From NCBI GenBank assembly GCA_020632235.1, contig JACKFY010000003.1, forward strand, positions 94,139 through 158,138: DNA of 64,000 nucleotides. The letters are read 5' to 3'. The DNA comes from Pseudomonadales bacterium. Lineage in GTDB: Bacteria; Patescibacteriota; Microgenomatia; UBA1400; PJMF01. Numbering within the stretch: position 1 is the first letter of the stretch; each line of letters starts with the position of its first letter. Of this stretch, positions 6,656 to 34,069 are shown in pieces. Under the pieces are notes generated by a model, which saw only the letters and a program-made list of their open reading frames with translations, did not search any database and was not told the origin of the DNA. A program made the translations under genes and the position numbers.

Positions 6656-7344
6656 AATACGATGGTAGATTAACCAATAACCTGATTTTAATTGGCGGCG
6701 GAATAATGCTAAGGGGAGAAACGGAGAGAATTGATCGCTGGATGCTGAGAAGAGTTCAAAATAATAATAAAAAAAGCAAACCTAAAGTACTTTTTATACC
6801 CTCAGCAAGTGGCGATTTAGATGAATATATCAAAAATTTTACCAATAGGTATCAAGAATATGGAGCAATAGTGAGCAGCCTTTCTTTAACAAGTAAGGCT
6901 CCCTCAAAAACGAAGATAAAAGAACAGTTTTTCGATGCTGAATTGATATACTTTGGTGGAGGAAGTGCTGGGTTACTTCTTGAGGCATTCAAAAAATTTG
7001 AGCTAGAAAGGCTGTGTTTTGAGGCTAATAAGCTTGGAATTTTAATAACAGGACTTAGTGCAGGAGCAATTATTTGGGGAGAAAAGTTTCTAACCTTTGA
7101 TCGAAAAGGAGATGATTTTATTAATTTTCGTATTAAGCGTGGACTTGGATGGACTAACAGTTTAATTATTCCACACTTTGACCCTTCAATGTTAAAAAAT
7201 AAAAATGTGCTTAAACTACTGAAACAAAATTTAAATTTAAAATCTCTAGCTATTGGCAACGGGACTGCTGTGTATTGGGAAGGTAGTTCTATTCCTCTTT
7301 TAAGAAACAAGAAGAATCATGCAAGGGATTGTTTTTATCTATAA
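6652..7344 (+). CDS. Peptidase family S51 (dipeptidase E / cyanophycinase-like) serine peptidase
   Basis: 'KVLFIPSASGD', 'IYFGGGSAGLLL', nucleophile motif 'TGLSAGAIIWG' and 'IPHFDP' (His). All are consistent with the S51 fold and Ser-His-Glu triad. Confidence 0.7.
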   Translation: MKYDGRLTNNLILIGGGIMLRGETERIDRWMLRRVQNNNKKSKPKVLFIPSASGDLDEYIKNFTNRYQEYGAIVSSLSLTSKAPSKTKIKEQFFDAELIYFGGGSAGLLLEAFKKFELERLCFEANKLGILITGLSAGAIIWGEKFLTFDRKGDDFINFRIKRGLGWTNSLIIPHFDPSMLKNKNVLKLLKQNLNLKSLAIGNGTAVYWEGSSIPLLRNKKNHARDCFYL

Positions 7345-29207: not shown

Positions 29208-30395
29208 CTACTGTCCAGATTGCCATAGTTGGTATAATTTCTCAAGGTTTGAAATAAACTCCTCTTCAAAGTGTTTTTTTTGACAGGTTTTTGCGGCAGC
29301 TTGTAAGCGGTGAGTGCTCCATCTTCTTTGTAACCCTTTTTCAATAGCATCAGCAACACTAGAAGGCGTTGTTTCTTTGCAGTGTTGAGAGATGTCTTTG
29401 CCCAATACTTCACTACAACCGCTTTTTTGATGCAGCACGCTTGGTACTCCTAGTGAGGCAGCTTCTAGTGGTGTAATGCCAAAATCTTCAAGTCCTGGGT
29501 GAAGAAACAACTTGCTTCGGTTGAGCAACCACGTTTTTTCGTGCTCTGTGAGTATTCCTGTAAAGTAGGTAACGCCATCAGCTTGTGTATATCGGGCAAG
29601 AAATGACTCAAGTGACTGGTTTTTGTGTCGAATAGATACGCGATCAGCTAAGCGTTCTAGACGAGCTCTATCGGGGCCATCACCCGCCACAACGAGACCC
29701 AGCCCCAACTGTTTGCACGCTAAGATGCTACTATCAACTCGTTTGTACGAGACAAGTCGAGAGAGACTCGCGAGGTACTCTTTTTTGACCGTTTCTTTTG
29801 TCAGTAGGGTAACGGGAGGGTACACTACCCCATCAGACGTTCTTTTGTATATATGTTTGACCCGCTGTGCAACTAGGTTTGAAATGGCAAGGTAACTGTC
29901 TGGCCTACTGGCTGCGACTTGATCCCACTGGCTCAGATATCCAAGCGTTTTTTTTCCAAGATACGACAGTCCAGGCACTCGAAATGCGCCCGAGTGCTGT
30001 GTGTACTCGTCTGTGTGAGTGGTGAGAAATCTGGTGGGTGTGCAGATGTAACAGAGATGAAATTGATCTGCCCGGGTGATAGCGCCCTTGGCAAACGAGG
30101 CAGAGAGCGATATCACCACATCATGAGCCGAGAGATCAAGCGTTTCAAAAGCGATGGGTAGGAGTGGAGCTAGCGCACGGTGATGAGATCGCACATACGG
30201 TAGGTGTTGAAGAACTGATGTTTTGACCGTTGTGTGAGTCAGCCAGCTGACGTTGTTTGCATCATAGACTGAGGTGTAGAGCGTTGCGGTTGGAAAAAGC
30301 TTGAGAAGAGACGAGAGAACCTGCTCTGCCCCGCCAAACTCCGTGGTGAGGTGGTCGTAGATAATAGCTGGTGAGCGAGGAGTAGTTATTTTCAG
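29208..30395 (-). CDS. GT4 glycosyltransferase lacking a canonical start codon (possible CTG start or N-terminally disrupted)
   Basis: The ORF track starts at GTG 30194. My manual translation shows the same frame open a further 67 codons upstream with GT4 N-terminal sequence '...LKITTPRSPAIIYDHLTTEFGGAEQVLSSLLKLF...'. These codons contain no ATG, GTG or TTG. A CTG at 30395-30393 overlaps the upstream GT4 stop as CTGA. C-terminal 'HPGLEDFGITPLEAASLGVPSV' is a GT4 motif. Confidence 0.55.
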   Translation of the reverse strand: MKITTPRSPAIIYDHLTTEFGGAEQVLSSLLKLFPTATLYTSVYDANNVSWLTHTTVKTSVLQHLPYVRSHHRALAPLLPIAFETLDLSAHDVVISLSASFAKGAITRADQFHLCYICTPTRFLTTHTDEYTQHSGAFRVPGLSYLGKKTLGYLSQWDQVAASRPDSYLAISNLVAQRVKHIYKRTSDGVVYPPVTLLTKETVKKEYLASLSRLVSYKRVDSSILACKQLGLGLVVAGDGPDRARLERLADRVSIRHKNQSLESFLARYTQADGVTYFTGILTEHEKTWLLNRSKLFLHPGLEDFGITPLEAASLGVPSVLHQKSGCSEVLGKDISQHCKETTPSSVADAIEKGLQRRWSTHRLQAAAKTCQKKHFEEEFISNLEKLYQLWQSGQ

Positions 30396-31504
30396 GTAGT
30401 ATTTCCCAGTACGTCTTGATACACCTCAAGTGTTTGCTGGGCTGCTTTGTCCCATGAAAACTGTGTCTGCAAGCTGTTTTTTTGAGCATTTGTGAGCGTG
30501 GGTCGTTTTTTTTCTATGTTCTTGACTGCTTGCACAAACGATGCAGTGCTAAGAGGATCAAAGTACTGGGCGTACTCTTGGTAGATTTCACGAAAAATAG
30601 GAATATCAGAGGCAAGCACACAGCCACCAGCAACGAGCGCCTCAACACCAGTTAGCCCAAATCCTTCTGATGTAGAAGGTTGAATAAGCGCCAAATGAGA
30701 GTGATACAGCTCAAAGAGCTCAGCGTCAGGAACAAATCCGCGCACGTCGAGTTGTTTTTTAACGCCTAGTTGACCAGCGCGCGTGAGCACTGTGTCGAGA
30801 AACACCGACCGAGAGCCAACCAAAGTCAGGGTGTAGTCAGGTAGCTTTTGGAGAGCGCGCAGTACCAGCTCTATATTTTTATGCGGATAGAGCGAGCCAA
30901 CGTAGAGCAATTGTTTATTGGGTCTGTAGGCATCCAGCTGTTTTTGCTGGCTGGCGATCTCTGCACCCTCATAGATTGAGAGTAATTTTTCTTTTGTTTC
31001 TGGGTAGTAGCTACTCACCACCTCTGCAATCGTATTGGATGGGGTGATGATACTATCTGCCTTTTTACAGGCGATGGAGGTGACTACTCGGTACATCAAG
31101 TATTTTAGGTAATACTCGCCCGCACCCAGTGTGGTAACGGCGCTTCCCTTGTGCTGGTGCCACAATAGGTCGTGAATGGTGACCACTAGCTTACCCTGGT
31201 ACAACACCGGCACGTTGAAATGAGGTGTGTGAAAAAGAGCAAGTGGCTGACGCTGGACTCGCCACCAAAACGAGGTTTGCTCGCGCAGAGTGTAGTGACG
31301 CTCTGGTGAGAGAACTACCTTAACAGACTTTGGTAGTTTGTTTGGGAAAAACTCACGTACTTGATCTTGGGAGCGAAAAAAAAGCACCCAGGTGTACTCA
31401 GTGTGAGTAACAACCTGGGTGACTATATTTTGAATGTATCTCCCAATGCCAGCGTGCTGTTTACCTCCTAGCCTGCAATCTATTCCTATTACTGCCTGCG
31501 GCAT
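30392..31504 (-). CDS. GT4 glycosyltransferase
   Basis: 370 aa. C-terminal 'STSEGFGLTGVEALVAGGCVLASDIP' is the GT4 EX7E region. Confidence 0.8.
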   Translation of the reverse strand: MPQAVIGIDCRLGGKQHAGIGRYIQNIVTQVVTHTEYTWVLFFRSQDQVREFFPNKLPKSVKVVLSPERHYTLREQTSFWWRVQRQPLALFHTPHFNVPVLYQGKLVVTIHDLLWHQHKGSAVTTLGAGEYYLKYLMYRVVTSIACKKADSIITPSNTIAEVVSSYYPETKEKLLSIYEGAEIASQQKQLDAYRPNKQLLYVGSLYPHKNIELVLRALQKLPDYTLTLVGSRSVFLDTVLTRAGQLGVKKQLDVRGFVPDAELFELYHSHLALIQPSTSEGFGLTGVEALVAGGCVLASDIPIFREIYQEYAQYFDPLSTASFVQAVKNIEKKRPTLTNAQKNSLQTQFSWDKAAQQTLEVYQDVLGNTT

Positions 31505-31512
31505 ACGGCATA

Positions 31513-32001
31513 CTACTTGGTTTTTTTAGTCTTCTTTTTAGGCGATTTTTTAGTGCTTTTTTTTGCACTTGATTTCTTGGCCATTGCTTTGGCAAGCGGT
31601 TGTGTCTCTGATTGCTCGAGTGTTTCATTCACAATAGCTTCAAGTTCTTGCAGCTCTTGATCGGTCAGGTCGTCATCGCAGCCACAACTCCCGCCACAGC
31701 AACCAGACATGTCATCTAGCTCTTGCTGGAGGAGTTTGATTTTATTGGAGCGAGTGAAGTTGACAATCAAGCTGTAGAGCAAGTGACCAAAGCCGATCAG
31801 AAAAACAGCAAGAGTAAGGTACTCAAAGATTTTTGGCTCTTGGGTGAGTGTCAATCCCCCATCGTAGAGATACCTCAAAATGAGCTGTGGGAGAAAGGAG
31901 GCTGCAAACAGCGAGCCCACCATAACAGCCAGCGATTCTACGAGTTGTTTTTGCTGCTGGGCGCGTAAGTCTTGTATTGCACATTGTGTATTGGACATCA
32001 T
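31513..32001 (-). CDS. Hypothetical membrane protein with Cys-rich 'GCCGGSCGCDDD' motif and poly-Lys C-terminal tail
   Basis: Two predicted TM helices, then 'MSGCCGGSCGCDDD', an acidic helix, and a C-terminal 'KKSSAKKSTKKSPKKKTKKTK'. Confidence 0.4.
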   Translation of the reverse strand: MMSNTQCAIQDLRAQQQKQLVESLAVMVGSLFAASFLPQLILRYLYDGGLTLTQEPKIFEYLTLAVFLIGFGHLLYSLIVNFTRSNKIKLLQQELDDMSGCCGGSCGCDDDLTDQELQELEAIVNETLEQSETQPLAKAMAKKSSAKKSTKKSPKKKTKKTK

Positions 32002-32006
32002 ATTGG

Positions 32007-32876
32007 TTAGATCCCTTCTTTACTACGTACGAAGTACTGTATCATAGTTCTGATAAAAGAGGGATAGGAATCTTTGTAGTGTTTATCATAGTACTGCAGC
32101 ATGGTGTGATAGAAATGTTTTCTCGTAGTAGTGGCTAGTTTTTTTGAACTACTCTTGATGCCAGACTTATACTTGTGATGTACCACAACAACTTCAGGGT
32201 TGTATACTATTTCATATCCAGCCTCACGAATACGCGTACACCAATCAAGATCTTCGGCATACATAAAAAACTGCTCATCAAGTAGCCCCACTTTTTTAAT
32301 AGCTGACTGGCGCACCAACAGCGCTGCTCCCGAACAGGCATCTATAGCATGAATGCTGTGATAGTTTTTATAGGATTGATGATACTGTGCAAACAACCGT
32401 GAGTGAGGTAGTAGCTTGGAGGCTCCCATAAAGTATGTTAGCGACGCCCAGGGTGTGGGCTCGCCTCTGTGGCACGCCATATCGAGTTCTCCGGAAGAGT
32501 AGACAATCTTGGGTGTAATGACACCCACTTGTGGATGGGCATCCATGTAGGCAATGAGTGTGTCAATAGTGCTTTCTGGGGTGCACTCAATATCAGAGTT
32601 AAGCAGCATGCAGTAGCGAGTAGTACTGCGTTCTAATGCTCTGTTATTTGCATAGGCAAAGCCATAATTTTTCTCAAGATAGAGGGGAGTAACCCACGGA
32701 AACGACCGCTCAAGCATTTTTTTTGTATCATCACTACTGTTGTTGTCGACTACGGTAACAATAACCTTGTTTTTTGTTTTGGTGAGGTAGTGAGTGTGGA
32801 GGGTTGAGAGAGTTTTTTCGAGCCAAAACTGTGAGTTGTAGGTCACAATAATGATCTCAAGTGTTGGTTGTTTCAT
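32007..32876 (-). CDS. GT2 glycosyltransferase
   Basis: 'LEIIIVTYNSQFWLEKTL...VTVVDNNSSDDT' N-terminal GT-A signature with DxD. Confidence 0.8.
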   Translation of the reverse strand: MKQPTLEIIIVTYNSQFWLEKTLSTLHTHYLTKTKNKVIVTVVDNNSSDDTKKMLERSFPWVTPLYLEKNYGFAYANNRALERSTTRYCMLLNSDIECTPESTIDTLIAYMDAHPQVGVITPKIVYSSGELDMACHRGEPTPWASLTYFMGASKLLPHSRLFAQYHQSYKNYHSIHAIDACSGAALLVRQSAIKKVGLLDEQFFMYAEDLDWCTRIREAGYEIVYNPEVVVVHHKYKSGIKSSSKKLATTTRKHFYHTMLQYYDKHYKDSYPSFIRTMIQYFVRSKEGI

Positions 32877-34069
32877 GACTGATTTCCCATAGCATTGTAG
32901 AGCGCATCAAGTTTTTTGGAGATCTCTCCCCACTCAAAGTGCTGAGCCACATACAGTTTGCCAGTCGAGCTGAGCTTTTTTTGTAGTGAGCGATTTTGAA
33001 GCACTTTGACAGTTTGTTGTATCAGTTCTTCTGGTGATGAGCTCAACACAACGTGCGTGTCTGGGGTGACATCAATACCCTCAACAGCGGTTGGCGTAGC
33101 AACAATGGGTGTGCCAGCAGCCATCGCCTCCAGAATTTTGTATCGCGTTCCTTTACCACTCATAACAGGAGCAATTAGCACATTTGCTGTCGAAAATGCA
33201 TCACGAATATCATCAATCCTGCCTAACACCTTTACGTCTTTGAGTGCTTTGGCTTTTTCTATAATGTCTTGGGTTGGCTCATTTCCCACGATGTGTAGCT
33301 GTGCATTGGGTATCTGTGCTTTTACCCCGTTCCAAACAGCATCCAGTAGATAGTTGACCGCCTCAACGTTGGGCAACCACTTAAATGTGCCTACAAATAG
33401 CGCAGTTGGGGTTGGTGGTGGCTTCCAGGGTTTTTCTGCAAACCAAGCAGCATCGACACCATTCTCTACTACTTGAATGCCCTCTTTTTCTCCAAGAACC
33501 TGAGCAATGTACTCTTTATCTGCCTCGCTCATGGTTACGAGTACATCTGATTTTTTCCAAAAATGTTTTTCCCAGTGTTTAATTTTGGCTATATCAACCG
33601 CAAGAATGGGTTGTAGTAGGGGGTGGGCTCGCTCGGCATAGCTTTCGTACCCAAGGTACTCGATGGTTTGTTCAACAAGTAAAATAGGAGTGTCAGTCTG
33701 GGGAATGTGGGGCATCATGTAAAATGTCTCGGCGTGAATGAGGTCGTACTGGGTATAGGAAAGCTCTGCTTCAACAGCCTTAATTACCTCAGGTACATGA
33801 TTTCGAATGATCAAGAATGGATAACTAGAGACTGCAGTTTTGAGTACATTTTTAAGAGTAAATGGGCGTTGTGATCGCTTAAATACGCGAACTACCGAGC
33901 AAAATTCTTCAAGGTGGCTGATGTATTTTTTCTCGCTTTCATCTTTAATCAAAGCAAAAAGCGTAATGCTGTGGTGTTGGGAAAGCTTTTTGAGTAGGTT
34001 GTAGGTTCTAATTTGACCACCAGAAAGAAGCGGATACGGCAGGTAGGGGGTGAGCATCAAGATATTCAT
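32873..34069 (-). CDS. GT4 glycosyltransferase
   Basis: 'MNILMLTPYLPYPLLSGGQIRTYNL' N-terminus. GT-B C-terminal domain. Confidence 0.8.
   Translation of the reverse strand: MNILMLTPYLPYPLLSGGQIRTYNLLKKLSQHHSITLFALIKDESEKKYISHLEEFCSVVRVFKRSQRPFTLKNVLKTAVSSYPFLIIRNHVPEVIKAVEAELSYTQYDLIHAETFYMMPHIPQTDTPILLVEQTIEYLGYESYAERAHPLLQPILAVDIAKIKHWEKHFWKKSDVLVTMSEADKEYIAQVLGEKEGIQVVENGVDAAWFAEKPWKPPPTPTALFVGTFKWLPNVEAVNYLLDAVWNGVKAQIPNAQLHIVGNEPTQDIIEKAKALKDVKVLGRIDDIRDAFSTANVLIAPVMSGKGTRYKILEAMAAGTPIVATPTAVEGIDVTPDTHVVLSSSPEELIQQTVKVLQNRSLQKKLSSTGKLYVAQHFEWGEISKKLDALYNAMGNQS

Follow-up and report, generated by a model that had tools for sequence, protein, structure and literature searches.

A glycosyltransferase gene with an unannotated N-terminus and CTG at its expected start position in a Patescibacteria polysaccharide operon

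The glycosyltransferase (GT4) gene on the minus strand at 29208..30395 of the window (the whole 64-kb stretch of DNA that was analysed) begins with 67 codons that are a genuine GT4 N-terminus and real coding sequence, and CTG (30395-30393) stands where its orthologues carry ATG. Most likely, a single A-to-C change at 30395, silent in the upstream gene, turned an ancestral ATG into this CTG. The favoured reading, which holds a probability of roughly one half and is drawn from the sequence, is that the gene may still be translated at a low level by coupling to the gene before it. After ending the upstream GT4 at UGA (30394-30392), ribosomes would start again on the CUG that overlaps it or, alternatively, on an AUA two codons later, and either codon would be read by initiator tRNA. 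The full-length protein would then be made at about 1–2% of the level of an AUG start, a rate suggested by E. coli data. If this amount is sufficient, the gene would be a hypomorphic but functional member of its operon. The outcome of the analysis is an annotation correction together with a single-base start-codon substitution of uncertain consequence.

The frame of this GT4 is open for 77 codons, from an in-frame TGA at 30428-30426 to GTG 30194, with no ATG, GTG or TTG among them, and a canonical in-frame start is thus absent upstream of the essential conserved sequence. Translated from CTG, the minus strand gives 395 codons without a stop or a frameshift, ending in TAG at 29210-29208. This startless leader is the longest among the 64 predicted genes in the window; the runners-up, of 52 and 45 codons, are both accounted for by overlap with an upstream gene. 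The upstream GT4 gene (370 aa, 30392..31504, minus strand) ends in CTG GGA AAT ACT ACC TGA, and the downstream frame reads CTG AAA ATA ACT ACT CCT from 30395 on the same strand. The CTG shares bases with the upstream stop (TGA, 30394-30392) as cTGA. The C at 30395 also serves as the third position of the upstream Thr codon ACC, where an A-to-C change is synonymous (ACA to ACC, Thr in both).

These features had been proposed from the sequence-only reading, whose hand translation of 30395..30195 proved exact, whose claim of a leader with no canonical start holds over all 77 codons, and whose overlap of CTG with the preceding stop is as described. The misread frameshift or stop between 30395 and 30194 that it had allowed for is not present. 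It had also bounded the frame by an upstream TGA. The frame is indeed closed by a TGA, but the one within cTGA is out of frame, and the true boundary lies 11 codons 5' of CTG at 30428-30426. The extension between them encodes GVSRRTGKYY, and no further near-cognate start was found in these 11 codons (GGT GTA TCA AGA CGT ACT GGG AAA TAC TAC). The claim that CTG is the only candidate initiator was overstated. Besides CTG at codon 1, the leader holds ATA at codon 3 (30389-30387), ATT at codon 11 (30365-30363) and ATC at codon 12 (30362-30360).

Two other ways around the lack of a start codon were considered and rejected. Both the A8 run (30513-30506) and the A7 run (30483-30477) in the upstream gene lie 5' of the in-frame TGA at 30428, so transcriptional slippage at either of them would be stopped short of the downstream gene. 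An alternative genetic code is unneeded, as ordinary stop codons terminate the genes of the operon and the translated products agree with homologues. No structured RNAs or RNA genes were detected in the window by Rfam at gathering thresholds or by ARAGORN.

The family match of the startless stretch far exceeds what chance would give. Against a family profile built from 73 homologues, with this protein left out, the 67 residues from CTG alone score 79.6 bits (E 1e-26), and the annotated 328-aa protein enters the same profile only at position 66 of 374. Homologues are 360–415 aa long, with a coverage of the 395-aa translation of 94–98%. In an alignment of 74 sequences, the extension contains the invariant residues A10, G22 and E24 and the near-invariant D14, G21, A23, V26, P35, A37 and T41. 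At all 12 columns invariant across the alignment, this protein has the family residue; the invariant and near-invariant positions together include G21-G22-A23-E24 and E303-D304-F305-G306. Its identity to homologues is 42.7% over the first 67 aa and 35.7% over the remainder, a ratio of 1.20 that ranks 34th of 74. Such a ratio is typical for the family, and therefore the N-terminal segment shows no extra decay; its constraint was no different from that in any relative, at least up to a very recent time.

The same conclusion on the N-terminus is obtained from structure prediction. The AF2 model of the 395-aa protein (pLDDT 95.4, pTM 0.92) has a GT-B fold with two Rossmann-like domains. The codons absent from database annotation (codons 2–67, 30195..30392) would supply beta1 (residues 10–13), alpha1 (22–33), beta2 (38–41) and beta3 (57–59) of the N-terminal domain, and residues 1–9 are predicted to be disordered. 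In the model, this domain is complete only with a start at or before codon 9; because beta1 begins at residue 10, initiation anywhere from codon 1 to codon 9 would be expected to give a complete fold, and the ATA at codon 3 is still 5' of beta1. The CTG lies 9 residues ahead of beta1, within the range of 3–40 residues seen in homologues. Foldseek found the GT4 enzymes BshA, PimA, MshA and PglA as the closest solved folds (E about 1e-14 to 1e-12). The Pfam families Glycos_transf_1 (PF00534, a C-terminal domain, 63.8 bits, gathering cut-off 26.4) and PF13692 (36.9 bits against 27) were also matched. The best NCBIfam equivalog score was 31 bits against a cut-off of 274, and no equivalog was reached.

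The gene is part of a conserved operon for surface polysaccharide in a Patescibacteria genome labelled Woesebacteria. The order of genes is GT4, GT2, a protein of about 160 aa, GT4, this GT4, a mannose-1-phosphate guanylyltransferase-like gene, a polyprenyl glycosylphosphotransferase and DUF4012, and it is the same on five contigs of other Patescibacteria, apart from the small ORF, which is missing in one of them (L008). This small ORF (162 aa, 31513..32001, minus strand) matched no family in Pfam or NCBIfam. It has a Cys-rich GCCGGSCGCDDD segment as well as a tail rich in Lys, and it keeps its position between GT2 and GT4 in four of the five orthologous operons (134–165 aa). NCBI labels the proteins of this population in two ways: one record is named 'Pseudomonadales bacterium' and the other 'Candidatus Woesebacteria bacterium'. 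The former looks like a binning or labelling error, since the homologues and the conserved operon are those of Patescibacteria.

The five positional orthologues are about 40% identical to this GT4, and the upstream GT4 is 45–50% identical to its own counterparts. ATG initiates all five at the corresponding position, a few residues ahead of beta1, and the site of the internal GTG is the start in none of them; the refuting condition set by the sequence-only reading, that orthologues begin at the internal GTG, is thus rejected. Distances from the upstream gene at the orthologous junctions are -1, +14, -11, -17 and -8, with an overlap in four of the five pairs. These five tight junctions indicate that close coupling of the GT4 pair is ancestral. 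The exact 4-nt overlap is found in this genome only when compared with the five orthologous operons.

Closer relatives were searched for. The best non-self protein match is 40% identical, and nothing was found between 40% and 99.7% protein identity. A scan of genome contigs returned only a Geminicoccaceae gene with 32% identity, and metagenome contigs gave no match to an exact DNA pattern in which the start base was left as N, or to a peptide pattern. As a result, the start codon can be compared only between a near-clonal population, which has CTG, and orthologues of about 40% identity, which have ATG. Because no relatives of intermediate identity exist in the collections, re-initiation on CUG and a start-loss pseudogene are not separable by sequence.

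The RNA around and after the CTG folds less stably than shuffled sequence (z = +1.36), a property expected of an initiation region. The operon has a second 4-nt overlap, ATGA at 32876, with the same TGGGAAAT eight bases upstream of the start; the two junctions (32889..32870 and 30408..30389, both on the minus strand) share TGGGAAAT-N4-C-[A/C]TGAAA, with 14 of 20 bases identical. The shared motif could be a weak ribosome-binding element, could reflect a shared C-terminal [M/L]-G-N motif or could be due to chance. A recent duplication was rejected as its origin, as the two upstream GT4s are only 24% identical. Taken together, the intact frame, the conservation, the low structure and TGGGAAAT fit a site that works now, or worked very recently, as a coupled start.

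Shine–Dalgarno (SD) pairing appears to be little used by this organism. In the 20 nt upstream of 45 ATG starts in the window, the SD cores GGAG and GAGG are not enriched (1/45 each), and AAGG, AGGG and GGGA are enriched 3–4-fold (GGGA about 3-fold). Where SD pairing contributes so little, initiation may depend more heavily on the identity of the start codon, a point that weighs against re-initiation on CUG. In E. coli, CUG, AUA, AUC and AUU initiate at 1–2% of AUG, with values of 0.02–3% across constructs (bioRxiv 10.1101/063800). Coupling by termination-reinitiation requires a stop and a start that overlap or lie very close to each other (PMC10666635). At an SD-less coupled junction in E. coli, 24.7% of upstream ribosomes went on to read the downstream gene with UAAUG, but 0.4% did so once it was changed to UAAUA (PMC9955659, Table 1). 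A near-cognate start is thus not rescued by coupling in E. coli, and this counts against re-initiation on CUG.

The second reading to be weighed, a tentative but serious one, is that the ATG-to-CTG change effectively silenced the gene and that its frame is intact only because there has been too little time for further lesions. The use of ATG by 5/5 orthologues agrees with it, and nothing in the upstream gene opposes the change because the change is silent there. The sampled genomes represent one near-clonal population with one SNP in 7 kb, in which a recently fixed mutation would look the same, and this single SNP is non-synonymous and affects the last codon of this very gene. On the other hand, neither a stop nor a frameshift is present in the 395 codons and all invariant residues are retained, the ratio of N-terminal conservation to that of the remainder is typical of a family member, and CTG is the allele in every assembly sampled. 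The gene also lies in the middle of an operon for a lipid-linked glycan pathway that is kept across relatives at 40–50% identity. In lipid-linked glycan pathways, intermediates usually remain stuck on the carrier lipid when one transferase is lost. One disabling lesion, the loss of the canonical start, is thus present, and additional lesions or relaxed constraint were not found; this comparison has no power against a very recent loss. By a rough estimate, the intactness of the 1.2-kb frame rules out a loss of function only if it dates back more than roughly 0.5–1% neutral divergence. The E. coli measurements, in which near-cognates give only about 1–2% expression and coupling brings no rescue (10.1101/063800, PMC9955659), are likewise in favour of silencing.

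All readings other than re-initiation on CUG and a start-loss pseudogene are improbable even when taken jointly. The first of them is a programmed -1 frameshift at G_GGA_AAU (30407-30401), which would yield a two-domain GT4-GT4 fusion of roughly 760 aa. If this were true, ribosomes would slip into the downstream frame, and the downstream GT4 would therefore need no start codon. The heptamer G_GGA_AAT lies in the correct zero frame of the upstream gene, the -1 frame is that of the downstream gene, and the site lies within the 11 codons over which this frame is open and runs straight into the downstream gene. An SD-like GAGGTG is found 14 nt upstream of it. Furthermore, G_GGA_AAT occurs in frame only twice in the 64 genes, both times in a GT4 gene whose end overlaps the next gene by 4 nt, at a distance of 3 codons from the GT4 stop. 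Formally, the heptamer is a -1 slippery sequence, and it can alternatively be described as a weak purine-rich ribosome-binding element 8 nt before CTG. Nevertheless, in-frame X_XXY_YYZ heptamers are common (181 in 20,288 codons), so that the chance of at least one in 11 codons is about 9%. No hairpin or pseudoknot stimulator follows the heptamer; the 101 nt downstream have an MFE of -15.3 against a shuffle mean of -18.8, which is the z of +1.36 given above. Unstimulated heptamers in E. coli reach 2–10 times a background of ~0.05%, and efficient motifs end in A_AAG (PMC4066793). The orthologues are separate genes, each with its own ATG, and no fused homologue occurs among the best 120 matches (294–465 aa). 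An in-frame heptamer and an open -1 frame are thus combined with the absence of a stimulatory structure and with no conservation of the fusion or its signal, and the frameshift is highly unlikely.

The same heptamer stands at the same offset before the other 4-nt overlap (32888-32882), which, if the frameshift were true, would mark a recurrent recoding signal in the lineage. In a milder reading, the CUG may be stably maintained as a start that depends entirely on termination-reinitiation, in a Patescibacteria genome with weak SD usage. A hairpin was also observed inside the start of the GT2 gene (32860..32818, minus strand), 21 nt downstream of the heptamer at that overlap (-14.7 kcal/mol, z = -2.17 against shuffled sequence).

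A sequencing or assembly error, in which the true base at 30395 is A and the junction is a normal ATGA, is still less probable. The consensus of metagenome-assembled genomes (MAGs) carries occasional errors, and the CTG was judged from assemblies rather than from read pile-ups. However, the same junction is present in a separately assembled Logan contig of SRR12358676, which is identical to the window over the operon at 6986 of 6987 bases, CTGA included. This independent contig was reached through P0121, a cluster-mate of the 328-aa database protein P0001. Other Logan contigs agree, three having an identical upstream gene and two having the 328-aa call, as do two NCBI MAG records with the same 328-aa call; all of these records may come from one sample. 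Among about 15 billion proteins, no ATG allele of the 395-aa protein was found. The sole mismatch with the SRR12358676 contig is at 29213 on the minus strand (position about 3982 of L001), in the last sense codon of this gene, where CAG is replaced by GAG (Gln to Glu). Of the three explanations offered by the sequence-only reading, a coupled CTG-initiated gene and an inactivating mutation therefore remain, a sequencing error has become an unlikely source of the CTG because an independent assembly shows the same base, and the possibility of a -1 frameshift had been missed.

The database protein (MCA9369887.1, MCB9802160.1) has 328 aa; it starts with MRSHHRALAP at GTG 30194, a start that the sequence-only reading had described correctly. 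Because the start position carries CTG, gene callers fall back on this internal GTG (Val68, 30192..30194, minus strand) and report a fragment. According to the AF2 model, a start at Val68 would drop beta1, alpha1, beta2 and beta3, with three core beta-strands among them, and the glycine-rich loop, which marks the 328-aa entry as a gene-caller artefact. That it is a real, functional product is the least probable reading of all. Annotation pipelines do call it, but these elements and the invariant GGAE loop would be missing from it, and the 198 nt left 'intergenic' would be an open, in-frame stretch that matches the family at 79.6 bits. No SD-like sequence precedes GTG 30194, and the fragment has no counterpart among family members, none of which is cut at the N-terminus (the short matches P0086, P0106 and P0111 have normal N-termini and are shortened C-terminally).

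For practical purposes, the main consequence concerns annotation. MCA9369887.1 and MCB9802160.1 describe a fragment that, to judge from the model, would be unable to fold as a GT-B enzyme; the coding region should reach 30395 and be flagged either as a pseudogene or as a gene with a non-canonical start. Should the CUG be used, the gene would be another natural case of near-cognate initiation, in an uncultured weak-SD lineage and at a stop/start overlap, a setting whose rules of start selection are little understood. If the CUG is not used, the first step of gene loss would have been caught in a conserved glycan operon of a reduced genome. Either outcome leaves the understanding of near-cognate initiation and of gene loss unchanged, and the biological import is limited.

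The protein itself resembles the GT4 enzymes BshA, PimA, MshA and PglA in its GT-B fold, Glycos_transf_1 domain, EDFG motif and N-terminal glycine-rich loop, and its operon resembles other GT4 systems in having a polyprenyl glycosylphosphotransferase and a mannose-1-phosphate guanylyltransferase-like gene. It differs from these named enzymes in reaching no NCBIfam equivalog. With start-codon-loss pseudogenes, the gene shares a single-base lesion of the initiator and intact orthologues. In contrast to them, it has no second lesion and no measurable relaxation of constraint, and it is therefore indistinguishable from a live gene. The junction is similar to the -4 ATGA type of coupling (Huber/Soppa PMC10666635; phage GA coat-lysis PMC9955659), as both genes belong to one operon, lie on one strand and share 4 nt in a stop/start overlap. 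The difference is that the start inside this overlap is CTG instead of the canonical ATG, and in the E. coli model junction AUA nearly abolished coupling. Finally, the gene has much in common with near-cognate starts in bacteria, namely the absence of a canonical in-frame start, a near-cognate codon where homologues start and a low expected output of 1–2% of AUG. The bacterial gene infC is initiated by AUU, and, like other known functional cases, this start is conserved and regulatory. Unlike starts of the infC type, the CTG described here looks like a one-off substitution and is a predicted start only. Rare annotated CTG starts have been tabulated by Hecht et al. (bioRxiv 10.1101/063800), and near-cognate starts and start-loss pseudogenes are both already-known kinds, to one or the other of which this gene would probably belong.
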